Source of the DNA: Haliotis asinina
Taxonomy: Eukaryota
Assembly (NCBI RefSeq): GCF_037392515.1
Contig: NC_090294.1
Span: 14,283,038 to 14,347,037, forward strand
DNA length: 64,000 bases
Direction: 5' to 3'
This document shows, piece by piece, positions 12,503 through 61,620 of the stretch. The translations under genes were made by a program, and so were the position numbers. Below the pieces are notes generated by a model, which saw nothing but the letters and a program-made list of their open reading frames with translations, was not told the DNA's origin and searched no databases. The first letter of the stretch is position 1. Each line of letters opens with the position of its first letter.

Positions 12503-12582
12503 TTGCTAGCTCACCGAGATGTCATGCCGAACTTAAGCATGAATATCCCGAGATGTCATGCCGAACTTAAGCATGAATATCC
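12503..12582. repeat. direct tandem duplication of a ~40-bp unit
   Basis: cgagatgtcatgccgaacttaagcatgaatatccc occurs twice back to back. Confidence 0.85.
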
Positions 12583-14040
12583 CATTCAGACACAATATAC
12601 TGACTACCGAGCTGTCCTTGTGCCCCTTAAGGACGAGCGCCTGACAGGCGACAAGAAGTAGCCCAATTTAACGCCTTTTGGTTGATCGAACCTGTGACCT
12701 TCCCTCGTGCGGACGTCACTACGCCATTGCGGTCCCCGTACTTCTTAAAGGTACAGTTCTGCGGTAAGAGTGCATTTTCAGACTCTCGGGTGCATGTGGA
12801 CATTAGCCATTTGTCGAATGCAGTGTGAAGTATTATCGTTATCTCACAATACCGACGATATGATGATTACAAGGTTACCATTCATAACTGTCCTCTTAAT
12901 TTGAAGAAGACACATTTTCATTACATTTCGTGATGAGAATTTCCATCGGACAAATCTGTACTTGAACCTCTTCATCCAGCAGAATTCCGGGAGATTTAAA
13001 ATGTCAATTAAATAGACAGAAGGAAATGGTGCGTGTACATGATTGGATGTTTTGGACGGGTCATTACATCTTCAGGCTGTCTTAGATGCTGCTGTTTGCA
13101 AGCATGTTGATGAACGTTTTCATGGAACGAGTATTAACTTGTTTACCACAAAATGTAAACATATTTTATTTTAAAGGTTGAATTTCCATTAAGCCTTTCG
13201 CTCCTCCATAATCACGTAATAATCAGTGTGCAGATGAAGGAGCCATTGACACAAATGAAGCTATCAATCATTTCACAATGAAAAAGTCAAGGATTTGACT
13301 GCATCCTTATAAAATGTCGGTTTCTCATTAGGGGTGTAAATGTCAAGTTGGCAATGCGTATTCCTTTCCAGCATTTTTTGTATCACTGCTACTAAAAAGA
13401 CGTTTCGTGTGATGTAATTTACTACAGCGGTGTCAGCTCATGAACTTACAAGTTACTCTTATTGGGCATACCTTACGATTTGATTTTCCTCTGACAGATA
13501 AATAGATGCGCCGTTTATTCGTGAGGCCAGAGTCACTTCCCTGGAAACTGTTATCCTGAAGGAATCTAGAGCATATTCAGAACTTTAAAAACATATTTAA
13601 GAACGTCTTCGTGAAAAGATGTTATTAACCCGTCATTTAGGAATTTGCCAGTCAAGCAACATGTCGACTGGACATCCAATTCATTTCAAAGCTGATCACT
13701 CAATCACTCCTTCAGATATTTCCAGAGATATGAATACTTGAAACCCATTTTTTAAACTGTTTTACTGCTTGAAACCAACTTTTGTGCTCTCAACATAATA
13801 GCTACGGGAAGTTTTACTTTCTTACTTTCTTTAAATGATTATCAGTCATTTATTATTATTTTTTCTCATAGATCATTTACATATCAATGCAACTAGTGCT
13901 TGCTCCAGACGCTAGCATTTGTTTCCCTCGATGATTGGATGTCAATCGCAACGTCACATCGTATTATCAATCTCAACTCCGTAGGGATTGTACAACTGTT
14001 GTTGCCACTAGAAGCACCGAGATTAGTGTTGCTCTCTCAT

Positions 14041-14928: not shown

Positions 14929-15057
14929 TCCCTCGGGAGCCATGGGCTCATGTACCCTCAAGGTACCCCTGCATGCTCGAGGAACATAAACAAACCTGCG
15001 GGCTCGAGGAACATAAACAAACCTCGAGGGTACATGAGCCCATGGCCCCCTCGTGAC
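14929..15057. repeat. hairpin: ~32-bp inverted arms around a loop with a 23-bp direct repeat
   Basis: ccctcgggagccatgggctcatgtaccctcaagg against cctcgagggtacatgagcccatggccccctcg. The loop contains gctcgaggaacataaacaaacct twice. Confidence 0.8.
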
Positions 15058-19594: not shown

Positions 19595-21599
19595 CGTCTT
19601 CTGTTTATGCCCTGTTTTGCAACTACCCAATTGCAATATATATATTATGAAAAACATCGCCAACAAGATCAAATGGTCGAAGGAATACTGCCGCAGGCTT
19701 TCAAGAAATGAAGTGATTGGAAAAACGAATCCCAGGAATTTCAAACGGCCAATGAGAAGGAAATTACACCCTGAAGCTGTCTGCGATGCTGTGTTGCTAA
19801 CATTGAGATAATGATGATAATCTTTGATGATATCAAATTTGCTAGGTTCAGGTTGTTATTCTGTTTGAAGTTTGATTTTCTTTACGCGGTTACTCTCCTT
19901 CATAATGCCGTGATGCGTTGATCGTGCGCAGGTGAAGGACCAATTGACATAAGTGTATCTGTTTATCATGTCATTGCGATGTAGCTATTGATCTGATTTT
20001 TATTTATTTAGTTACTAACCAAATTTTGATCGAATTGATCTACATTTCGACCTTCCCCAGACATGAAGCTCCGTCCCACGTCTCCGTGCGTTTAGCATAA
20101 CGGAACAAAAATATGCAATAAGTCATAGTAGTATACGTATTCTGTGTTTTTAACCATCGTTATATGCCGAGATGGTGTTGTTGTTTCCAGCGTGTCAAAG
20201 CAAACCGTTGGCCATTTGGACGAAAGAAAGGGATGACAATTGATACAAGATCTGTCTCATCATCTCAATCGAATGCTTTAAGTGATATAGACAGAAAATC
20301 GAATAGCTTAGTAAAAGACCATTCGTGTAGATTCCCCTTCAAATTATGGCCGCATTATATACGTCTTTTAAAGGAAATATTTGCATTATTATTTGAAGGC
20401 AAACTGAAATTTATGGTTATGAAATAGCCGAAACCATAAGTGCTTGTAGAAAGTTTATGATTTTGAAGTTTTAGTCTCCTCCATCTAAATACGTTTGATG
20501 TCTCATGCCGTGATTTTAGGATAAGATATAAAGAAAGTTTATAAATTGTAAATTCGTTCTTTTCTCATTGTCAAGGAGCACGATAAAGCCATTTCCTTCT
20601 CTGCGGTTGGCGGAAATTGGAAGTTACAATACATCGTGATGAGAGCCCGTGTAACAGACAATAACTGAAGAAGCACAATAAGCACAAAAACACATTTTCA
20701 ATTTGATGAGTCGCAGGGGTTACCAAATCAAATATAGGCATCTTAAACACTGTATGGATGCCATCAAGATACTTTCATGCCTGGCTGTACACTTTACTCT
20801 AGTTTATGTGCGTATATACGTCAATCAAATATCATGTGTATCGATAAGTTGTCATCTGTTAGGTAGTTTTTCGACAGGATAAAACCAAGGGATGAAAATT
20901 AAATTTGACTTTTCATACACTAGGGTAATACATTTTGATGAGTGTCAGTTTGACACCGCGAAAGACAAACAAAACCAATGTGTGCAGGCAGGGTTTATTC
21001 TGCCCAAATGACGTTAAGTCACTCTCTAAAAGCCAGGCCTCAGTTTCTGTTGCTGTCACAGTCCAACTGGCTCATATCTTCAAAGATCATACATGTATCT
21101 TGTAATAGATATTTAGCTAAGGCCCGTTTTAACTTGACCACAATTGCTGCAAGGTGAATACCATTATCAATTACGTTATCCCTGTGGCCATTTCTATAGT
21201 ATTTTATACTGCAATTGTATTTGTACTGCCACTGACTGTATTTATATTCAATCTATTGTGTCAGCGCCCAGCATAATGTATACCCAAATGGACCAGGCCA
21301 AAGACATCGAACCCTACACATTCAGCTTACTAACCTAAGTCAGTGGCACACATTCATCTAGCACTTGAATTAAGATAAGTACATCACCTTCTGACAGGAT
21401 CGTTTCTCTTCATAGGTTTGTACGAAACTGTCGAATGTCCAAAAGTAAATCATTCCATTTCATTAACAAGTGAGAATCGTCCGGGAAACCTTCTTTTGAC
21501 TGAAAGGCGTTCTCGAAGACAAATGACTTGTGCTTCACCATTAAGGTTACAATGAACCCCTGTTAGGTCTTTCAAAATATTTCAAAATCATCTAGAGAT

Positions 21600-22010
21600 G
21601 TGTCTCGCTACAAAGTATTTTTTTTGGATTTAAATATTGGAGATTGGCCTGAAATCAGTAATGCATTACAGCATGACATATAAGCTGTGGAGTTCTTTCT
21701 TTCGGATTCCCTATTGCATTAGGTACGGTCTATCAAACTGTTTCCAATTCAACTTGTGTTGTGTCTCGCTACAAAGTATTTTTCTGAATATATATTGGAG
21801 ACTGGCCTGAAATCAGTAATGCATTACAACATGACATATAAGCTGTGGAGTTCTTTCTTTCGAATTTCCTTTTGCATTAACTACGGTCTTTCAAAATGTT
21901 TCTAAATCAACTAGTGCTGTGTCTCGCTACAAAGTATTTTTCTGAATATATATTGGAGACTGGCCTGAAATGCACTACAGCATGACATATACGGTGAAGA
22001 GTTCGAATTC
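21600..22010. repeat. tandem repeat, ~160-bp unit x ~2.7
   Basis: gtgtctcgctacaaagtattttt…ggagactggcctgaaatcagtaatgcattaca[ga]catgacatataagctgtggagttctttctttcg… recurs starting at about 21600, 21761 and 21919. The last copy is truncated. Confidence 0.85.
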
Positions 22011-22879: not shown

Positions 22880-23370
22880 TGTTTTTGTTTTGGGTTCAAC
22901 AAGTTCCAAAATTATGGGAGAGTTCGTGTTTGCAGATGTAGCGGTGATCGCCTGGTGCCAGACTGTGTCCAAGAGGTGCTCTCTCTTAGGTGGCGAAGGT
23001 GTCATGGTATTGGATGGAATTTGTGGTCAGCAGAGAGTATGAATTGTCATTCTCCGTGGACATTACCTGCTCACAGGTACAAAGACGAATTCTTGAATTA
23101 GTTGTGTTACCACTTGTGCGTCATCAACCGAGGGGTTTGATCTTACAACATTACAATGCACGTCCGCATATGCATATTGTCAGGCTTGTACAAGACTACC
23201 TCAACTTACTGCCCTGGATATGAATCCGATAGAGCATCTCTGAAACACCTTTGTAGACAGTTGAGGCAACGGCAAACCGACAGCAGCTTGAACAAGTTCT
23301 CATGGATCTGTAGCACAGAATTCCTACTGACGTCATCCATGATGAGATTTTTGGAACGTATGAAGACGTC
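22880..23370 (+). pseudogene. Tc1/mariner-superfamily transposase C-terminal remnant with many stops and frameshifts
   Basis: Plus-strand translation across frames reads …GGEGVMVLDGICGQQRV*…VQRRILELVVLPLVRHQPRGLILQHYNARPHMHIVRLVQDYLNLLPW… then DMNPIEHL… then …QQLEQVLMDLWHRIPTDVIHDE…. These match the conserved GVMVWG, QxDNARPH, LPWPxxSPDxNPIEHLW and L..EW..IP blocks of Tc1/mariner transposases. Confidence 0.5.
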
Positions 23371-25549
23371 ACACAACTGAAGACTTGGACAGTTCCATAA
23401 TGTGACTTGAAACACATCTTGTGAATGATCTGTGATGGGGTAACATTTCATTTTGACCCCAAGTCCCTTGTGTTTGATTCCGTGACCAGATTACTATCGA
23501 TTGGTGATTCTGTCTCATGCATGGTAAATGGTTAGATTTTGTATTGTAAAACAATAGTTCTATCATATATATATGTCCTGGTGTCGTCTTCATGAGGCAT
23601 AACATCAGGTGATAAGTTTCTTGTGTACATAAGTAAGACACAAACTGAGACTACTGTCATTATCTTTATGAGACAAGCAAAGGGATGCAAGGAATATATC
23701 TGAGCCTGTACGTGTTGCTGAATAACACAAACAAAAATTGTTCGATTGTTGCTCACTCACTCACTGTCGTACGATTTAAAATATATCATAATCACGTAGT
23801 TATAAATGTGAATAATAGCGATACTAAGTATTTGCGAAACGGTGAGCTCACCATTGGTCCGAATCACTGAGATCTGGTGGTGTGCAATTAGTCAGATTAT
23901 CTGTACACACTTTTCCATTTTTGTCAGCTCTTCTGGCAAGTATGAAGCACTTTGAGTGTGGTTTTGCTGCTTATTGCCACACTCACCTATATTCCAGCGG
24001 TAGGTATGTTACAGCTGTATGAATACTGAGGGAGAAAAAGAAGGGATCACATGAAAGCAGAAGCATTCCTTTATATTTTTCAGGTTTCTCCACAAGTTGT
24101 GCGACACACAGCTTGTGAAGAAACCTTTGACAAAATAATGGAAAATACTGCATTTCATGTGATCCCTTTTTTCCTTAGGTATATACAATTGATTCTGGAT
24201 GAAACACTCTAATGATAGATATCCTGAGCATTGACCTACACAACTGAGATGGAGTGGCATACATCCAAAAAGACAGAATGGGTTGCTGAAGATCAAGCCT
24301 AAATCTTTATGAGTTGATGAAATTGTGATTTAACACATCACCTCTTTAAGAATCATTCTCAAGGGTATAGCAAAGCATGAAGACAGCATCAATTTATGTA
24401 TTTAATTATCATTTCCAAAGTCATTACTTTAACATGACTTGGGAAATCGGTTTTTAAATTATGGACTTAGCATGATGAGATCGTTTCTTGAGAATACAAC
24501 AATTCAGGTGTAACAATTCAGAAAGAACGTAGAGGACATAATCATTTCATCAGTTTGAGACAACAAATATAACTTAATCTCCTGTTTGATGTGCGGATGT
24601 ATGAGTGGTGGTTCTACGTCGGCAATATGAAACCAGAATGACTTATTGTTCAAACAAATGATGTACTATATCACCGAGCCAAATTACTAAGTCTATTCCA
24701 TCGCTCTTTACAACTAGTTAGGGACAATTTCTCATTCCTGGAGCCCCCACGCGTTAGATACAAAACCAATTCAATACAATAAAACCCCACAATACTAATA
24801 TTCAGAAGGTCTTGTATTTGCCCTGGAGGATATATCGATATATTCACTTATGTCAAATCTTTGTTTCTCCTTAGATTCTGTGAACAAAGTCAGGCAATAA
24901 TTCGGTACACTCATTTACTTGAGTCGGTTGATCACGCAACAAATGACTATGATGAAGGTTTATAGCAGGTCGAAATGAGTCGGTCAGATAGAAAATTAAT
25001 TCAAAAGTTCTACTAAAAAAGTTACGTTACCTCCTTTGCTGTCAAGTCTAGTAATCGAAATGCAAAAAAAGCGTGATATGATGTCGTATTCCAATTATGT
25101 AATGGAGGGCGAAATTATGACATTGATTACCAAACAACAATGTTGGCACCAATATAGTTATGTAAACTGCACCGTAATTACATCAGATACAGATCGTAAG
25201 TCTTCACTCTAGACGCTCTGGTAAACGTAGGGATGTGTTTGTAAGTCACGTCGACCTCAGGAGTAGTCTGGGGTCGTCGCATTAAGGCTTGATATAAGTC
25301 TGGTAATGCATCTTGTTTCTGAAGTGGACCCAGATGACAGTGTTAATCAGACTGAAGTTCAGAGTGTCACCTCAAGGGAGCCCAATAAATCAGAACGTGG
25401 TGTTTTGGTAAAACATCACAGTGGTTTTATTCGCAATCCTTTTTAACGTACTGAGGAGACGGGATGCTTCTCGCACAGTTCATCGCTCCCATGGTCATAT
25501 ATGACCTTTTATAGTAATTCTGAAAGGTTTTACCTTTTTTACAGAACGA
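23194..25549. repeat. tandem duplication, copy 1 (2356-bp unit)
   Basis: The sequence from 23194 onward recurs at an offset of exactly 2356 bp. ORFs 23196-23417, 23206-23451, 23369-23641, 23532-23756, 23685-23870 and 24009-24296 recur at 25552…26652 with only single amino-acid differences. Both copies end …ccttttttacagaacga. Confidence 0.88.
24041..24168. mobile_element. MITE-like 128-bp element with ~20-bp terminal inverted repeats
   Basis: aagggatcacatgaaagcag at 24041-24060 against ctgcatttcatgtgatccctt at 24148-24168, a reverse complement with one mismatch. It lies inside the duplicated unit, with an identical copy at 26397-26524. A diverged relative lies at about 37121-37247 (tatgggatca…tgatcccatag, internal …cagcttatgaagaaacttgaaacaaaataagggaaca…). 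Confidence 0.4.
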
Positions 25550-27905
25550 GACTACCTCAACTTACTGCCCTGGATATGAATCCGATAGAGCATCTCTGAA
25601 ACACCTTTGTAGACAGTTGAGGCAACGGCAAACCGACAGCAGCTTGAACAAGTTCTCATGGATCTGTAGCACAGAATTCCTACTGACGTCATCCATGATG
25701 AGATATTTGGAACGTATGAAGACGTCACACAACTGAAGACTTGGACAGTTCCATAATGTGACTTGAAACACATCTTGTGAATGATCTGTGATGGGGTAAC
25801 ATTTCATTTTGACCCCAAGTCCCTTGTGTTTGATTCCGTGACCAGATTACTATCGATTGGTGATTCTGTCTCATGCATGGTAAATGGTTAGATTTTGTAT
25901 TGTAAAACAATAGTTCTATCATATATATATGTCCTGGTGTCGTCTTCATGAGGCATAACATCAGGTGATAAGTTTCTTGTGTACATAAGTAAGACACAAA
26001 CTGAGACTACTGTCATTATCTTTATGAGACAAGCAAAGGGATGCAAGGAATATATCTGAGCCTGTACGTGTTGCTGAATAACACAAACAAAAATTGTTCG
26101 ATTGTTGCTCACTCACTCACTGTCGTACGATTTAAAATATATCATAATCACGTAGTTATAAATGTGAATAATAGCGATACTAAGTATTTGCGAAACGGTG
26201 AGCTCACCATTGGTCCGAATCACTGAGATCTGGTGGTGTGCAATTAGTCAGATTATCTGTACACACTTTTCCATTTTTGTCAGCTCTTCTGGCAAGTATG
26301 AAGCACTTTGAGTGTGGTTTTGCTGCTTATTGCCACACTCACCTATATTCCAGCGGTAGGTATGTTACAGCTGTATGAATACTGAGGGAGAAAAAGAAGG
26401 GATCACATGAAAGCAGAAGCATTCCTTTATATTTTTCAGGTTTCTCCACAAGTTGTGCGACACACAGCTTGTGAAGAAACCTTTGACAAAATAATGGAAA
26501 ATACTGCATTTCATGTGATCCCTTTTTTCCTTAGGTATATACAATTGATTCTGGATGAAACACTCTAATGATAGATATCCTGAGCATTGACCTACACAAC
26601 TGAGATGGAGTGGCATACATCCAAAAAGACAGAATGGGTTGCTGAAGATCAAGCCTAAATCTTTATGAGTTGATGAAATTGTGATTTAACACAACACCTC
26701 TTTAAGAATCATTCTCAAGGGTATAGCAAAGCATGAAGACAGCATCAATTTATGTATTTAATTATCATTTCCAAAGTCATTACTTTAACATGACTTGGGA
26801 AATCGGTTTTTAAATTATGGACTTAGCATGATGAGATCGTTTCTTGAGAATACAACAATTCAGGTGTAACAATTCAGAAAGAACGTAGAGGACATAATCA
26901 TTTCATCAGTTTGAGACAACAAATATAACTTAATCTCCTGTTTGATGTGCGGATGTATGAGTGGTGGTTCTACGTCGGCAATATGAAACCAGAATGACTT
27001 ATTGTTCAAACAAATGATGTACTATATCACCGAGCCAAATTACTAAGTCTATTCCATCGCTCTTTACAACTAGTTAGGGACAATTTCTCATTCCTGGAGC
27101 CCCCACGCGTTAGATACAAAACCAATTCAATACAATAAAACCCCACAATACTAATATTCAGAAGGTCTTGTATTTGCCCTGGAGGATATATCGATATATT
27201 CACTTATGTCAAATCTTTGTTTCTCCTTAGATTCTGTGAACAAAGTCAGGCAATAATTCGGTACACTCATTTACTTGAGTCGGTTGATCACGCAACAAAT
27301 GACTGTGATGAAGGTTTATAGCAGGTCGAAATGAGTCGGTCAGATAGAAAATTAATTCAAAAGTTCTACTAAAAAAGTTACGTTACCTCCTTTGCTGTCA
27401 AGTCTAGTAATCGAAATGCAAAAAAAGCGTGATATGATGTCGTATTCCAATTATGTAATGGAGGGCGAAATTATGACATTGATTACCAAACAACAATGTT
27501 GGCACCAATATAGTTATGTAAACTGCACCGTAATTACATCAGATACAGATCGTAAGTCTTCACTCTAGACGCTCTGGTAAACGTAGGGATGTGTTTGTAA
27601 GTCACGTCGACCTCAGGAGTAGTCTGGGGTCGTCGCATTAAGGCTTGATATAAGTCTGGTAATGCATCTTGTTTCTGAAGTGGACCCAGATGACAGTGTT
27701 AATCAGACTGAAGTTCAGAGTGTCACCTCAAGGGAGCCCAATAAATCAGAACGTGGTGTTTTGGTAAAACATCACAGTGGTTTTATTCGCAATCCTTTTT
27801 AACGTACTGAGGAGACGGGATGCTTCTCGCACAGTTCATCGCTCCCATGGTCATATATGACCTTTTATAGTAATTCTGAAAGGTTTTACCTTTTTTACAG
27901 AACGA
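25550..27905. repeat. tandem duplication, copy 2 (2356-bp unit)
   Basis: Same as copy 1. The junction at 25549/25550 is acagaacga|gactacctcaactt. Copy 2 ends at 27905, followed by unique sequence tgatgtgataaatt. Confidence 0.88.
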
Positions 27906-29849: not shown

Positions 29850-30450
29850 AAAATCGAGTAAGGGGTTACACGACGAATCAACAAAGCCAAAAAATGGTAT
29901 GGCCACCATGTGCGGTTGTCTCGATGGCGTTGTGTCAGTATGGGTTATACAGCAGGGCGTTGTGGTCGAATCCCAAACTGATGTAAAAGAATCCTGGCTG
30001 TACTGGGATGAACATAACGCAGTCTTGGAACGGCCTAGGACGTGGTAACTGCCATCTGGAACCTGTGCGGGAAATGAGTCACCCGAATCCATCTGTCCTG
30101 TGTTGGCGTCGACACTCGATGACGCTCGGAACTAGGGGGACGTCATTAGTGTTTCGATAGCAATTGACCAGTGCAGATATCGTGTTGAGATGATTTTGGA
30201 AATGGGCTGCCACCATAGGGTGACTCATTCCCGCTCGAACCATATGCACTGAGGTGGATTCGTGACGCCGAGCAGATGTTAATAATGGTGTGATGTGCAT
30301 GTGACGTCTCATGTGAATTTGTGAAAGTCTGAATGATCAGAGATCAAGCTGTCGGCAATGCAGCAATTTCTGAGTTTCACATGCTGCACACACTGCAGTG
30401 GCATCAACACACTGCATGACCAATGACGTCATGTCGCCCGGCACGTGCAT
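29850..30450. promoter_or_regulatory. locally CpG-rich block bracketed by two ATGACGTCAT (CRE-like) palindromes; candidate CpG-island promoter
   Basis: CpG dinucleotides are dense here (cgacgaatc, gcggttgtctcgatggcgttg, cgtcgacactcgatgacgctcgg, cgtgacgccgagc, cccgctcgaacc, gtcgcccggcacgtgc) against CpG-poor flanks. ATGACGTCAT at 29834-29843 and 30423-30432. Kozak-like gccaccATGt at about 29900-29909. Internal inverted repeat gggaaatgagtcaccc / gggtgactcattccc. Confidence 0.25.
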
Positions 30451-33249: not shown

Positions 33250-34000
33250 GTTTCGCTGCTTACAAGTAAAGAGATGTGTTTTGGAAATAGGTTCGTTTTG
33301 AAACACGAATGAAAAATATGAAAACATATCCTAGCATTATGCCGCAAACTTCATCCGAAACACTTATTACGATAGTTGGTCATCTACTTTCGCGATTAAC
33401 ACTTACTCGTCAATTTTGGTTTTTCTTCCAACGACGAAGTGTCTGTCGGTTCTTTCTGGAGTAAAAAACTAAACATTCTTACTTGAAAGGATGCCGTTTT
33501 GTAAAAACAATACATAAACTATTTTCCAGATGGTCACATCACATCAACAAATTTCTAACTGAAAGCGTCACCACAGGCTTAAAGAACAACGAAACACGGC
33601 AGGCAAAAACAGAAAAGCACATATCCCAAAGAACATAGTAATTGTTTCATCTGCCACACTTCACTTCAAAGGACTAAGATTTATTTTCTCATTTCTTGCT
33701 CTTTTTCCTTGCATCACAATGTTTTATCTTCGACATAAAAAGGGTGAGAACTTCATATTGTATCCACAAAAGGGTGAGAACTTCATATTGTATCCACAAT
33801 ATACCATGAGCAAGGTGCCAAATGGTAAGGATGACAACAGTTCCTTCAGTGGTCACAAGGTTACAGAATTCTATCCCTTTGAAGACGATCACTGACATGC
33901 AGTATTACGTAGCTGTGTCCCAAAATAATATTCTGAATCAAATTGTTGCATCATGGAGAATTGTTTATGCTTTATTTGTAATTGAATCTAATAGGACAGC
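33250..34000. repeat. diverged dispersed/segmental repeat R4, copy 1
   Basis: Blocks cgctgcttacaagtaaagagatgtg, aagaacatagtaattgtttcatctgccacacttcacttcaaaggactaag, ccctttgaagacgatcactgacatgcag and attgttgcatcatggag all have counterparts in the same order at 51340-52215. Partial counterparts lie at 42040-42280. Confidence 0.6.
33738..33797. repeat. 30-bp direct tandem duplication
   Basis: aagggtgagaacttcatattgtatccacaa x2. Confidence 0.85.
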
Positions 34001-35985: not shown

Positions 35986-38900
35986 TAGGAGGTCATGTGT
36001 AATGCACAGTATTCATGAAGATGCAGAATTGTTTACGTTTACGTACATACACATCATGGCAATGTTGTACTAAGCGCTCTTTTCAAAAGAAGCTGAGTTA
36101 CTGTAAGCAAGTACAGTGCAAGGCGTTATGAGCGTATTGTGCTTTTTAAGCGACGTGCATGAGTATCGTTGCAACAGTGTGTCGGCCGATGTTCCCACAT
36201 GGACTACAGCTGGTCTTGTGGTGTTAGTATCCCGACGTCACACCAAACCACGGGACAGCAAGGGTAATAATGGCTTTATTAAATTTTAGTCGGCGTGAAT
36301 GTTTTTTTGTTGTTGTTTTGGGGTTTTTTTATATTTGCATGAGTGTCTGAGTCTGTCTGCCTAAGTCTCACTATACTTGTCCGCAGTCCGGGTGTCAGCA
36401 AACTTTGATGTCACGACGCACAATGTATATAACCTGTAAATAAAGACTTCTGTATATCTGTGATTGCTCTAAACATTCTATAACAGTGCGAAAATCGTTT
36501 TGGAATGTATAAGCAATAGACATCAACCATCCAATCACAATACTACAAGATTAGTATAGTTCACAAGACACGTCGCCATCTCATTTGACTTTCTGATCTG
36601 TGTAAGTCTGAAAACGAAAACGCTGAGGTGATCGTAACGAACAGGATCATTGCCCGATTACGTGGAGGAGAGGCTCGGGGTGTTGTCTGCTTGGTGTTGT
36701 ACATTCCTGAATAACACCTGTAATACAGTATCAGTCTGAGACATCATGCCAAAGGGTTAATATGACCATCCTGCTCTAACGCAATGTAGTGACTCCATGC
36801 CTGAGACCTCTCTTTGATTTTGATTTATCCCACAACTTTCCACCGCTAGGCAAGAAAACAATAAGTACCATCTCTTAACAGTTTTTAGTATGAAGAGACC
36901 AGGTATAGGACTAACGACCTTTCGCAGTCAGAAGCAATTGTTGCATTATCTAGACAATGTGGGCAGTTGGGTAAGACATCTCCAATTTGTAGAAGTAATT
37001 GTAAGTCAAAGGAGTTATATTGTGTTGTATCATGTAGCCATTTTGATACAACAAAACTTCACCACCTTCGCAGCGTTTTTGTTTGCCCCTGGTAAATATA
37101 CTGAGGGAAAAACATAAACCATTATGGGATCAAATGAGAGGACAATTGTTCCTTTATTTTTGACTAAAGCTTCTTCGCGAGCTTTGTATTGCACAGCTTA
37201 TGAAGAAACTTGAAACAAAATAAGGGAACACTTACGTGATCCCATAGTTTTTCGCTCCTGTTCCTGTTGTGATTTACTCACGTTTCCATGTCACAATTTC
37301 AAATGCTAAAGACAACGGTCGTGTCAGAGAGTCTCTAATTACGTTGTTTAAATTAATCAGGAAGAATCACGCATTGCTCACCTGATTCCGCCAGATATAG
37401 AGGTGACTCGTTCATACGAAGTCTTCATCGTGAATGGCCACCAAGCAAAACTCTCATTCAGAGGACCCTTTTCGGTTGGTCGCTTGTTTCAAGACGATCA
37501 TTCAGAAAATAAAAGTTGTTGAAAAGAAATGTTGGTGAGTTCTAGGTTGTTATCATGTGAGAAGGTTTACATAGAATATGGGCTAATCAGCTCCAAATAA
37601 ATAGACTAGGTATATGTAGCATTGATTTTATTTTTAATTAATTCTTTTTATTTTATTTTTTATTTATTGGGGAGGAAGGGATGGGGGTACTTTTTTGGCG
37701 TTCGATCATTATTTAAAAGCCCAACATGGCTTTCGTCACACTAAGGCATTCATATCCATCATACCTTGTTTTTCGCCCTCGGTGCACACGTAATGCTGGA
37801 CTATGATTTCAATGGCACAATCGTTGTTGTCGGACCGGATGTGATTAACAGCATTTCTATCAAGATCGATTTCTTTTCCATTTGCCTATCCTCGGCCCGA
37901 ACGACCTGGTATGTAATAGCTGAAATCTTACACAGCTGTAGCATTCGCGCAGCATCGGAGTGGAAGGTATCTACCATCTGTTTCTTTCGACACCGCTGGA
38001 TCCGGTTTGGTTAAGGTTTACTGCATAAAGTCTAAAGCTTCACAGGCCTCACTTGTCTTATCAATCTCAATAAACCCTTAACTCTCCAAAAAGTACAAGC
38101 CACATCGATATCTTTCATCATTTCTTTTTCTTTTTTCTTTTTTTAAAAACCACGTTGAAGATTTTAAATCAATTATTACATCAAGGATCTACTACATCTT
38201 TTCTCTCAAGAGAGATAGTGACAATGCATTTGCTTGGCCGCCAGGATATGTATTTGTTTATACTTCAATGATTTACTGATGCTGTGTGCCATTCTAAACC
38301 TAAACATTCTTTTCTAACGTCAGGATTGACAAGTTTAGTAATTTCGTTCTCTATTGATGATTCGATTCAAAATGCTGAGGACAATAATTAAATAGTCCAT
38401 CTTGAAATGACGAAACTTTGTCTGACATATCATGTGATTTCCTACGCCTGATTAACCAGCAGGCTGGTTGTGTTGACGCGATTCGTGTTTGTGAACGCCA
38501 TTCCCTGGTCGTGAATGTAATTCCTGCTACGACTATGTCCTACTAAATATGAAATTTGGCCGTAATTTAACACTGACAAACAAAATCGTAGAATACCGAG
38601 AGGAACTTGTGTAGTCAAACTATGGTGGAGGCCCAGTTTGGGTGGCCAGGCACCAGAGCAACTTGTGGTGCGGAGTTGCGTCCCCTTGTTCGATTGTTCG
38701 AATAAAATATGGCAGGTGGAAAATACCAAATCATATTTTGTCCACTTTGCATAATGAACAGAGAATTGAATACCACATATTGGCCATATGGGGAGTTTGT
38801 TTGCTGACAATAAATGTATTATCTAAAGATGTATGACAATATTCGTTGTAGAGAAGTATTGAGTATTATACTACTAATACAACAGAACCTTGAGACACAT

Positions 38901-44265: not shown

Positions 44266-44830
44266 AGGGATGTATCGTTAATAAGAGTTGATGCTTCATA
44301 CATAGTAAGGTATAATGTTCCAGACTATTGGGCGTTAATGTACATATATATCAGGACTAGATTATTCATACTGTCAGTTTCGTTTTATAGATGGGCTTTT
44401 GGGGGTGCCTTATTGAAAGCACATGTAGTGAAAGAATTTGTAAGAGTGTTTCTGTGAATGCGTGCGTGCATGCGTGCATGCTTGTGCATATCGAGGTGTA
44501 TATCTTCCTCTAATGAGAGTAATGTTTCATCCTTTTAACAAAGGGCCCTTACACCACTCTCACATGTTACACTTTGACAATTAAAGCGTTCGTGCATCAT
44601 GAGATCATTAAGCAACTAACCATCTGCTTCCTTTGACAGCTGGACCAGATTTCCGTCGCCAAATGCCATTTGACATTTCACAGGATTTATCGATCTCAAT
44701 AAACACTAGGGAAGAACAAATCACCTCGAAGTGCTTCACCATTCAAAAACGACTTCTTCACACATCAGACCCTAAGTCAGTCATTACTTATCTCACAAGA
44801 AGCATATTGCAAATGAATTTGTTAGGGAAT

Positions 44831-45393
44831 ATAAAGTGGAATAGTATGTTTACTGATCTTCTATTACATTTCAAAACATTCTGTCTCACGTCTATATTGA
44901 CAATTATTTAATGGTCCTATTTCTATAAAGTGGAATAGTATGTTTACTGATCCTCTGTTACATTTCAAAACATTCTGTCTCACGTCTATATTGACAATTA
45001 TTTAACGGTCCTATTTCTATAAAGTGGAATAGTATGTTTACTGATCCTCTGTTACATATCAACACATTCTGTCTCACGTCTATATTGACAATTATTTAAC
45101 GGTCCTATTTCTATAAAGTGGAATAGTATGTTTACTGATCCTCTGTTACATTCCAAAACATTCTGTCTCACGTCTATATTGACAATTATTTAATGGTCCT
45201 ATTTCTATAAAGTGGAATAGTATGTTTACTGATCCTCTGTTACATTCCAAAACATTCTGTCTCACGTCTATATTGACAATTATTTAATGGTCCTATTTCT
45301 ATAACGTGGGATAGTATGTTTACTGATCCTCTGTTACATTTCAAAACATTCTGTCTCACGTCTATATTGACAATTATTTAATGGTCCTATTTC
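44831..45393. repeat. minisatellite, ~94-bp unit x ~6
   Basis: Unit tctatattgacaattatttaa[t/c]ggtcctatttctataa[a/c]gtgg[a/g]atagtatgtttactgatcctctgttacatt[t/c]caaaacattctgtctcacg repeated head to tail with a few substitutions. Confidence 0.9.
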
Positions 45394-45700: not shown

Positions 45701-45833
45701 GACATTTGATTTAGATACTTTTGACATTTGATTTAGATACTTTTGACATTTGATTTAGACACTTTTGACATTTGATTTAAATACTTTTGACATTTGATTT
45801 AGATACTTTTGACATTTGATTTAGACACTTTTG
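45701..45833. repeat. minisatellite, 22-bp unit x 6
   Basis: gacatttgatttagatactttt repeated, with variants gacac and aatac. Confidence 0.9.
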
Positions 45834-47228: not shown

Positions 47229-47260
47229 AAATAATCAATAACACCCGGAAATTGGCCAAC

Positions 47261-47450
47261 ACATGATGTTTATCGACATTGTAAACACAAAAGTAAACCA
47301 AAGGGTTTTACTGTCTGCACTCGTTTTCATCGAGTATGGGTACAGCAGTGAAGTCACATCAGCAGGCCGTTTCAGCTGGTTCCCATGGTAGCATCTGGAG
47401 TTGCTCATTTGTGACGTCAATCTGACTTTACGTCACAATTTGATGTAATT
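47261..47450 (+). repeat. dispersed ~190-bp repeat, copy 1 (contains TGTGACGTCA…ACGTCACA)
   Basis: ggccaacacatgatgtttatcgacattgtaaacacaaaagtaaaccaaagggttttactgtctgcactcgtttt… about 92% identical to 49088-49290. Confidence 0.75.
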
Positions 47451-49087: not shown

Positions 49088-49290
49088 ACGGCCAACACAT
49101 GATGTTTATCGACATTGTAAACACAAAAGTAAACCAAAGGGTTTTACTGTCTGCACTCGTTTACATCGAGTATGGGTTCAGGAGTGAAGTGTTCCAGCTG
49201 GTTCCCATATTAGCATCTAGAGTTGCTCATTTGTGACGTCATTCTCACTTCACGTCACAATATGATTTGAATGACGTCACCACTGTTGAT
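49088..49290 (+). repeat. dispersed ~190-bp repeat, copy 2
   Basis: See copy 1. The 50 bp immediately upstream (49041-49090) is the reverse complement of 47199-47248. Confidence 0.75.
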
Positions 49291-54623: not shown

Positions 54624-54753
54624 TGTGCTTCTCTGGACTAGATTACTGCGGGTTTTATAGCGTTTGTTCACAGCGATAACTTGCATGTGTCTCAGTTTAA
54701 CGGTGAGGAGGTCTTGCAATGCTAATCGCCCTAGGTATACAGCTGAATATTTA

Positions 54754-54783
54754 CGAGGGGATGTCAATACGTTTTGAGCCTTG
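54754..54783. repeat. inverted terminal repeat of the mariner-like element (end nearest the transposase C-terminus)
   Basis: Direct reading of the sequence. It pairs with 56044-56073 as a reverse complement with one mismatch. Confidence 0.8.
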
Positions 54784-54818
54784 CATAGAAAAACACAAAA
54801 TATTGGTTTGAACAACAT

Positions 54819-55899
54819 TTATTTTTCAACATAGTCCCGTTGTGAGTCAAGACACTTGTTCCATCTTTTCTGCCAGGCGCTGATGCCATCTCTGTAGAAG
54901 GCGCCATTTTGGTCCTCAAACCAAGCCTCAGTAGCAGCAATGAGCTCATTATCATCCTGAAATCTACGACCACGCAAGTGTTTCTTGTGATTTGGGAACA
55001 GATGGTAATCACTTGGTGCCAGGTCTGGAGAGTACGGGGGGTAGTGGGGGTGGGGGGGTGGGGGGTCTGGGGTGCGGCAAGATTTCGTACCCGCATTCCT
55101 GGACAGCAGCGGCTGCAACGCGAGAGGTGTGTACTGGAGCATTGTCTTGATGTAGAAGAATACCACGTCTGATCTTGCCCCGGCGCTTCTCCTTGATTGA
55201 CTCTCGCACTTGCCTCAACAAGTTAGCGTAATATTCATTGTTCTTCCTTTTGGTAAGTAATCTATGTGGGTGACGCCTTTGCTATCCCAGAAGACTGTCG
55301 CCATTACCTTCTGCACTGATCTGGTGGCTTTGAAACTTTTTGGTCCTGGGAGAAGTCACATGTTTCCATTCCATGGATTCTTGTTTGCTCTCAGGCTCAT
55401 AGTGGTGGATCCAGGTTTCATCACAGGTTACTAGCCTACAGTGAAAATCTTCTGGATTTTTGTTGTATCTGGTTAGCATGGAGTTGCTTATGGTGACCCT
55501 TGTTTGCTTCATTTCATCTGTAAGCATTCTTGGCACCCATGTTGCACACACCTTAAACATGACGAGATGGTCATGAAGAATTGTCTCGATGGATCTGTGT
55601 GAAATGCCCGTGGTCTCCTCTAACTCGTGGAGTGTGATTCGACGATTTTCCAGCACAAGTCTATGCACTCTGTCAATGTTTTCCTGACTAGTGCTTGTTG
55701 TTGGGCGACCTGGACGGGGGTCATCTTCAAGACTCTCTCTACCATGCTTAAATTCATTTACCCATCGTTTGATGGTAGCAGATGAAGGGGAAGACTTCCC
55801 ATAAACTGCTGAAAGCCTTTCTTTAATGTTCTTCGCCGGGTTTGTTTCAAGAACTAAAAACGTAATTACTGCTCTATAGTCAGTTTTATTCATTTTCAC
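54819..55899 (-). pseudogene. mariner-type transposase, interrupted by at least two frameshifts and a G-rich insertion
   Basis: Three minus-strand ORF pieces cover it. ORF 55282-55899 carries the N-terminal HTH and linker (…GRPTTSTSQENIDRVHRLVLENRRITLHELEE…VTCDETWIHHYEPESKQESMEW…). ORF 55009-55221 carries …ILLHQDNAPVHTS…GYEILPHP…. ORF 54819-55166 carries …PPYSPDLAPSDYHLFPNHKKHLRGRRF…. These are the hallmark motifs of mariner transposases. The frame breaks near 55300 and near 55040-55170. Confidence 0.8.
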
Positions 55900-56043
55900 T
55901 GCCGTGGGGGGTGTCTCTTTCTGTCAATGTGAGCTGTTCAATAACTTCTGAGGGTAGGATACGAAAACTTACATATCACATCAGCTACACCCCAAGGTTC
56001 AATGTCGTACCATAGGCTGTGAAACCTGGGTATGAAAAATGCT

Positions 56044-60275: not shown

Positions 60276-61120
60276 ATATAACTGAAAAGTTGGCGTGCGG
60301 TTTTAAACAACAAACACACAAAACAAACTGTAACGACAGCTGGTCATGATCAACTCTTAAACGGAACGCTTCTGTGTCCAAATTCCCAAAATGGACACGA
60401 TAATGTCTTGACTGAGACACTCAACAATTCTATTGGGTTGGAGGTTCAGAGAAGAATGCAAGTATTTCCACTCTGTGTTCGTTTCTTTGTCAATGGATGC
60501 AAAGTAAACTTCCTGTCGTTTTCTATTCACGAATCTGTCGTCTGTCCCTACATCGTACAACTATCTATCACGCAAAACCTCCTTCTAGAGACACGTCATT
60601 TAGTTTATGCCCTAACTATTATACTGAAAATAAGTATCCTCCCCGGAATCTTATGATAATTGTAATGACTCGCCCCATCCCCTTGTTCACTCAAGGTTTA
60701 ACCCTCCATGACGAGGACAAATGAAACAGGAATTATATATTTCTTTGTAAAATGTCCTTTCAAAATAACCCATCCTAAATGTGTTTTGTGTGTCGTCCAT
60801 CAGCATACCCTCACAAAAAGCTAAGCAACACATATATTTAGTCTCATCACATTTTCATTTATGGAAATTGCAAATCATGGAATCATGCAAATGAAAGGTG
60901 AAACATATGTACACACGATTTACAAAATGAGATCAAATGATATTGGCAATAACAGACTTACAAATCAACAAAACCATGTACCCGTCCGTCAAATTGTTTA
61001 CATTAAGTTTCAGTCAGTTTTGGACAGTGAAGCGGTGTCCAGTAACGCATGTAGCCACTTTGAGCACAAATGCAAGCTACTACTCATCTTTGCATTGACC
61101 AAATGAACCTTTAAAGATGT

Positions 61121-61620
61121 TGTTGTGGAATGTTCTGCCATTCTCTCTGTAACGCGTGCTCAAGGTCATCCAGGGCGTGGGAATGAACGTGGAGACCGTA
61201 AACACGTATTTCCAATAACGCCAGGCCAGGTGATCAGGTGACCTGGAGGGCCAGTCCATATGCCTAATGTTGTTGATCTAAACATCATCATTAACAACCT
61301 CTCTCATAAGTTTGAAGTTTGGACCCGCTTGTTGTACCAGGGGAATGAATACAGTTAGGCTTAGGCAAGTCTGGGTGCTTGTGAGATGAGTGGAGCCCAT
61401 TCATGCCATGCTGGTTGTTAGGGTGGTTGTGTTTTGGGATGTTGTCAATGTTATCAGATAGATCAATTTGACAGTCATTAAAGGTCGTGTATTCTTTGAA
61501 TATTTAGATTTCAGTAAATACAATCCAGATGGGAGCCGTACATGGAGCTGTATCATGCCGTACCATCGTTCATGAGTTTCTGCCATTTTCAGGAAGCACA
61601 CGTCTGCTAACACATTTCAA
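61121..61620 (-). pseudogene. Tc1-like transposase C-terminal remnant, frameshifted
   Basis: Minus-strand translation gives …DNIPKHNHPNNQHGMNGLHSSHKHPDLPKPN… (compare FQQDNDPKH … SPDLNPIE) and …HALDDLEHALQREWQNIPQQHL* (compare NPIEhlWd.L.rrv … L..EEW..IP), ending at a stop at 61121-61123. The upstream part is only weakly recognisable. Confidence 0.4.

Follow-up and report, generated by a model that had tools for sequence, protein, structure and literature searches.

A probable young tandem duplication of 2,356 bp in the genome assembly of the abalone Haliotis asinina

A stretch of 64,000 nucleotides from the Haliotis asinina assembly GCF_037392515.1 (contig NC_090294.1, positions 14,283,038 to 14,347,037 of the forward strand) was analysed; this whole stretch is called the window, and all coordinates below are counted within it. 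The window contains two head-to-tail copies of a 2,356-bp unit, at 23194-25549 (copy 1) and 25550-27905 (copy 2). The copies differ at three bases, the outer edges of the arrangement are sharp, its breakpoints are free of repeats, and the remnant of a Tc1-like transposase reads through the left breakpoint. We infer that the arrangement probably exists in the animal as it does in the assembly, as a real tandem duplication of non-coding DNA that is young in evolutionary terms. An earlier note on this DNA had offered a choice between a young duplication and an assembly artefact. This was the right framing, and the gapless copies and their low divergence lean towards a real duplication.

The structure was established by comparing the window with itself. 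In an ungapped self-comparison at an offset of 2356, the two copies matched at 2353 of 2356 bases, and BLASTN of copy 1 against copy 2 gave 99.873% identity with 0 gaps. The copies are thus separated by exactly three substitutions and no indel. Copy 1 has T at 23349, T at 24338 and A at 24949, where copy 2 has A at 25705, A at 26694 and G at 27305; in the assembled sequence the three variant sites thus read T-T-A and then A-A-G. When the same comparison was scored in bins of 50 nt, almost every bin between 23200 and 25549 showed 50 matches out of 50. Outside the unit the bins fell to 7-22 matches out of 50, which is the chance level, and the drop was immediate at both outer edges. The copy number is exactly 2.0, with no partial third unit, no spacer and a period of exactly 2356; the window contains 0 N. 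No further copy of the unit was found elsewhere in the window by BLASTN, and a self-megablast of the whole window revealed no second repeat of comparable length and identity. The earlier note had described a two-copy head-to-tail duplication of very low divergence at these very coordinates, and both points hold. Its word "perfect" was an overstatement, and "near-perfect" describes the three substitutions better. The differences that it had cited (K/N and N/Y changes in translated frames, and gagatttttgg versus gagatatttgg) are real, but they come from one substitution, at 23349, and not from several. Indeed, the K/N and N/Y changes are this substitution read in two minus-strand frames.

The boundaries were then read base by base. 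The left flank runs into the unit as ...GCTTGTACAA followed by GACTACCTC, the unit runs into the unit as ...TACAGAACGA followed by GACTACCTC, and the unit runs into the right flank as ...TACAGAACGA followed by TGATGTGAT. The novel head-to-tail junction at 25549/25550 (...TTTTTTACAGAACGA followed by GACTACCTCAACTT...; the 31-mer across it is CCTTTTTTACAGAACGAGACTACCTCAACTT) has no filler bases and no gap. The sole perfect microhomology is a single base, the A at 23193 that equals the A at 25549, in agreement with the 1-2 bp at most that had been proposed before. On a loose count, 3 of 4 bases are shared (ACAA versus ACGA), and because of these three shared bases the megablast match extends 4 nt further. 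No repeat common to both breakpoints was detected by this reading of the boundaries or in the flanking 50-nt bins. Such a breakpoint signature points to an origin by end joining or by template switching. The end of the unit, at 25530-25549 and again at 27886-27905, carries a splice-acceptor-like string (ccttttttacag followed by aacga). This likeness is probably due to chance, because all three downstream frames meet stops within ~25 nt.

The left edge of the duplication lies inside a degenerate and frameshifted remnant of a Tc1-like transposase (22898-23343, plus strand), of which the catalytic and C-terminal part is left (profile positions ~86-246 of 268). Several stretches of it were recognised by eye in three plus-strand frames: GRVRVCRCSGDRLVPDCVQEV, GGEGVMVLDGI, ILQHYNARPHMHIVRLVQDYLNLLPW, DMNPIEHL and LEQVLMDL.HRIPTDVIHD. 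Tc1-like proteins were gathered with a typed consensus, which gave 7,303 matches carrying PF01498 and PF13358, one of them named "Tc1-like transposase DDE domain" by UniRef. A profile was built from 50 listed Tc1-like matches of at least 250 amino acids (aa), and the window, translated in six frames, was searched with it. Plus-strand matches were found for profile positions 86-113 at 22898-22981 (independent E-value 0.058), positions 115-140 at 22986-23063 (0.092) and positions 139-185 at 23056-23205 (1.9e-7). Positions 222-246 were found at 25625-25699, in copy 2, which corresponds to 23269-23343 in copy 1; this match is weak alone (independent E-value 2.7). A pseudo-protein stitched by eye from the pieces aligned to profile positions 92-246 with a score of 81.5 bits (E 3e-27 for one target). 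Stitching by eye brings some bias into this score; the pieces themselves were found independently, in profile order and across three frames. By this significant collinear similarity the remnant can be assigned to the Tc1-like transposases.

In the profile, the start of the duplication falls near position 181, after what was once the second catalytic D and ahead of the E of NPIEHLW. The match to positions 139-185 crosses 23193/23194 in one frame, and copy 1 is in this way continuous with the left flank. Therefore, the edge is an arbitrary point in older sequence, and no mobile element ends there. At 25550-25699 on the plus strand, the 3' part of the remnant is present a second time, without its upstream half. 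The two copies agree in their frameshift and in the stop that follows NPIEHL, and the duplication therefore postdates the decay of the transposon. The earlier note had placed the 5' breakpoint inside a degenerate Tc1-like transposase and had described the PWxxSPDMNPIEHL-coding segment as present twice. The profile match across the edge bears out the first claim, and the second agrees with the LPW / DMNPIEHL-coding stretch at ~23206-23240, which recurs at ~25562-25596.

The duplication might also be an artefact of assembly. Only one copy would then be real, and overlapping reads or contigs, or haplotypes, would have been laid end to end and not merged; the three differences would be heterozygous single-nucleotide polymorphisms (SNPs) or a residue of polishing. 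An exact tandem copy with arbitrary breakpoints and few SNP-like differences does fit a mis-joined overlap. Moreover, assemblies of heterozygous species commonly contain false duplications, which make up 0.3-16% of the sequence (PMC9516828), and abalones are highly heterozygous, with published values of 1.37% (PMC9709998) and 1.56% (PMC9709981). Adjacent near-identical copies in a probably highly heterozygous species are what our structure has in common with the heterotype and homotype false duplications (PMC9516828).

However, several features separate it from them. According to Ko et al. 2022 (PMC9516828), false duplications are recognised by gaps between copies that share a scaffold, by haploid depth and by haplotype-specific k-mers; no run of N lies between the present copies. 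Their divergence is 0.127% (95% confidence interval 0.026-0.37%), about ten times below the published heterozygosity of abalones. Two alleles of 2,356 bp at that heterozygosity would be expected to differ at ~32-37 sites plus indels, whereas three substitutions were seen; the probability of three differences or fewer is 6e-11 at 1.37%, a uniform rate being assumed. None of the three differences is a homopolymer-length error of the type typical of long-read consensus. Thus, a genuine duplication is favoured, indirectly, by the absence of a gap, by a divergence below heterozygosity and by the absence of homopolymer-length differences. The absence of a second such repeat in the 64 kb also argues against an artefact. 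HiFi reads (mean ~15 kb, PMC9709998) would span the 4.7-kb structure, an argument whose weight depends on the sequencing technology used for this window. Finally, small young tandem duplications recur in the window, two of them being perfect two-copy duplications at 100% identity (34 bp at 12514-12583 and 30 bp at 33738-33799), and this recurrence was counted in favour of a real 2,356-bp duplication.

Some points weigh against a genuine duplication. Seven exact-protein look-ups, including one with a 32-aa open reading frame (ORF) that spans the junction, gave no independent contig of the locus, and the final 30 nt of the unit had no match in a scan of metagenome contigs. The argument from heterozygosity takes the published abalone values as uniform, and runs of low heterozygosity exist. 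A mis-trimmed and later polished long-read overlap could also give a gapless tandem copy with few SNP-like differences. With these points included, we regard an assembly artefact as unlikely, and a genuine young duplication as the probable origin of the two copies.

Besides the transposase fragment, each copy of the unit contains a near-palindromic element, at 24037-24172 in copy 1 and, identical in sequence, at 26393-26528 in copy 2. Its outer arms (24037-24056 and 24153-24172) are 20 nt long and 95% complementary, and enclose 136 nt from end to end. The inner arms, also of 20 nt, are 90% complementary, and the core (GGGATCAC...GTGATCCC) measures 124-128 nt. The 128-bp element resembling a miniature inverted-repeat transposable element (MITE) that had been reported for each copy is this core with two bases on each side. 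Folded as single-stranded DNA, the palindrome reached -42.4 kcal/mol (z = -10.6 versus shuffles). A diverged relative, 71-75% identical and with a hairpin z of -4.2, lies at 37126-37233 and lends modest support to the MITE-like label. The element is like MITEs in its length of 124-136 nt, in being non-coding and almost fully self-complementary, in its GGGATCACATGAAA / TTTCATGTGATCCC termini and in having this diverged relative 13 kb away. It is unlike typical MITEs in having only one independent relative in 64 kb and no target-site duplication (direct reading of the flanks). It is thus MITE-like but unproven. Matches of the palindrome to plant miRNA families, seen only at a relaxed Rfam threshold, on both strands and at half the gathering score, were rejected as generic-hairpin matches.

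If the duplication is genuine, the ancestral state would have been a single copy, with the long-dead Tc1-like remnant continuous into the unit. One non-homologous event would then have joined the base after 25549 back to 23194. This event may have been the end joining of staggered sister-chromatid breaks, or a backward replication template switch of 2.36 kb, in either case with at most 1 bp of microhomology. Three point substitutions would have accumulated afterwards, or would have survived gene conversion, and the outcome would be a doubled transposase 3' fragment, a doubled MITE-like hairpin and doubled anonymous sequence. If neutral substitutions are assumed to arise at 1-5e-9 per site per year, the divergence would correspond to an age of roughly 0.1-0.6 million years, which would be an underestimate if gene conversion acted between the copies.

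Other routes to the same structure were considered. The unit could have been excised as an extrachromosomal circle, end-joined at 25549/23194, and re-integrated into its own locus by homologous recombination. The end product would be identical, and the internal junction would be the circle junction with 0-1 bp of microhomology; the sequence would look the same whether the unit took this route or was duplicated directly, by a template switch or by end joining of sister chromatids. However, it needs two events and not one, and we hold it to be very improbable. A similarly long shot is that the duplication is a real, segregating polymorphism triggered by the 136-nt palindrome, whose hairpin or cruciform would stall the replication fork and lead to a backward sister-chromatid template switch enclosing the palindrome. 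If this were true, MITE-like palindromes would locally drive tandem duplications of kilobase size in this mollusc genome.

It is more improbable still that the unit is a mobile element (of Helitron type, or a composite transposon) inserted as a dimer, or a nascent macrosatellite array. On the minus strand, the unit starts with TC after an A, and in this it superficially resembles the 5' end of a Helitron. However, the plus-strand 5' end of the unit continues the flanking Tc1 remnant in frame, so that there is no insertion boundary, no terminal inverted repeats were found at the unit ends, and the window holds no other copy of the unit. A Helitron was rejected on its other end as well, since the minus-strand end (...GGTAGTC) lacks CTRR. 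A satellite or macrosatellite array was rejected because exactly two units are present, with no partial third, where at least three are required. The weakest candidate is non-allelic homologous recombination, that is unequal crossing-over between short dispersed repeats flanking the unit: a region rich in transposon debris could in principle supply substrates, but no supporting repeat was found, the sequences around 23194 and 25550/27906 share one base only with the flanking bins at chance, a common repeat would have been left at both outer edges and at the junction, and unequal crossing-over between repeats is therefore excluded and the candidate effectively refuted. A single non-homologous event thus accounts best for the duplication.

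The Tc1 remnant itself was examined further. Its DDE triad is not intact: the second catalytic D is replaced by Y in QHYNARPH, and the remnant has at least two frameshifts, in-frame stops and a ~9-residue deletion before NPIEHLW. It shares the GRVRV...GG..VMV, QxDNARPH and NPIEHLW motifs with Tc1-like transposases (Tc1/mariner, DDE_3 / PF13358-type). In contrast to Tc1-like transposase genes, it is dead and has no continuous frame. No N-terminal DNA-binding domain was detected in it, and no convincing terminal inverted repeats were found around it between 21.9 and 24.0 kb. General searches missed it. Pfam found nothing transposase-related in the stitched pseudo-protein, for which a sub-threshold EF-hand_3 match was discarded as spurious. 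A word-indexed search of 5.8 billion proteins gave no match, a sequence search of the PDB returned noise only, and phmmer, run with the 77-aa in-frame ORF on 1.84 billion representatives, found no match. A BLASTP comparison with a typed-in Sleeping Beauty sequence gave a weak collinear match (E 0.005), which was taken as a lead only. The methodological point is that a decayed transposase missed by Pfam and by billion-sequence searches was recovered with a small, family-specific, six-frame profile. The same profile detected two other pieces on the minus strand, a C-terminal fragment at 61042-61283 (36.5 bits) and an N-terminal piece at 29903-30067 (10.9 bits, independent E-value 6e-5), the latter 2 kb to the right of the duplication.

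Each copy also carries one TGACGTCA site, as had been noted before, at 23328-23335 in copy 1, within the IPTDVI-coding stretch of the Tc1 remnant, and at 25684-25691 in copy 2, within the Tc1 fragment. This palindromic octamer occurs ten times in the 64 kb (at 762, 5088, 16992, 23328, 25684, 29835, 30424, 47412, 49234 and 49272) versus 1.4 times expected from dinucleotide-preserving shuffles, and 0 of 100 shuffles reached ten. The count is still nine when the duplication is counted once. The contexts of the sites differ, and several have extra ACGTCA/TGACGT half-sites nearby. A dispersed direct repeat of ~190 bp (47254-47444 and 49090-49266, 87% identical) carries TGACGTCA and a nearby ACGTCAC motif in each copy; the two are probably copies of a small repeat family. 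The excess of the octamer may be transposon-borne.

The unit was searched for functional content. No Pfam family was found in any of its stop-to-stop ORFs of at least 55 aa, and neither an Rfam family at the gathering threshold nor a tRNA was detected in it. A scan for bacterial promoters and terminators, irrelevant for a eukaryote, stayed at or below the shuffle expectation. The duplicated DNA thus appears to be non-coding and without discernible function, with no sign of a gene, a recognised RNA or an intact mobile element. Across the window, ORFs of at least 85 aa, except the mariner and two low-complexity ORFs near 19.5 kb, likewise contained no Pfam family.

The window as a whole is ~39% G+C throughout and littered with repeats. 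A 158-bp tandem repeat (21566-21971, 2.6 copies, 88% identity), older than the 2,356-bp unit and unrelated to it in sequence, lies 1.2 kb upstream of the duplication. A 94-bp satellite (44830-45393, 6.0 copies, 97% identity) is followed after 300 bp by a 22-bp minisatellite (45701-45833, 6 copies, 95%), and a two-copy micro-duplication of 27 bp (93%) lies at 14968-15024. The mariner mentioned above is a decayed element of Mos1/SETMAR-like type on the minus strand (54752-55923), in which the C-terminal part is frameshifted and the N-terminal part is a 205-aa ORF (HTH_48, HTH_32). The best named relatives of this ORF are all from Haliotis (H. rufescens, H. asinina and H. cracherodii), at 66-75% identity. 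The mariner, at 71% identity, is all that the window has in common with the two contigs that carry the best relative, and these offer no orthologous locus.

The biological weight of the duplication is very small, as it contains no gene, recognised RNA or intact mobile element. If real, it adds one more case from which to learn how often kilobase tandem duplications arise spontaneously in a marine invertebrate of high heterozygosity and what signature they leave at the junction; it might also serve population studies as a presence/absence marker. If it is an artefact, it points to a local mis-join that deserves correction in the assembly. The structure is a textbook non-homologous tandem duplication of non-coding DNA or, alternatively, a textbook assembly duplication, and its kind is already known. 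Non-homologous tandem segmental duplications and copy-number variants (CNVs) have been catalogued in Drosophila, in mutation-accumulation lines of C. elegans and in human CNV studies. Compared with these, the content of the present duplication is purely non-coding transposon debris, its presence in the living genome is only probable, and nothing differs structurally. Indeed, it shares with them the head-to-tail arrangement, the kilobase size, the arbitrary breakpoints with 0-2 bp of microhomology and no flanking repeats, and the near-identity of the two copies.

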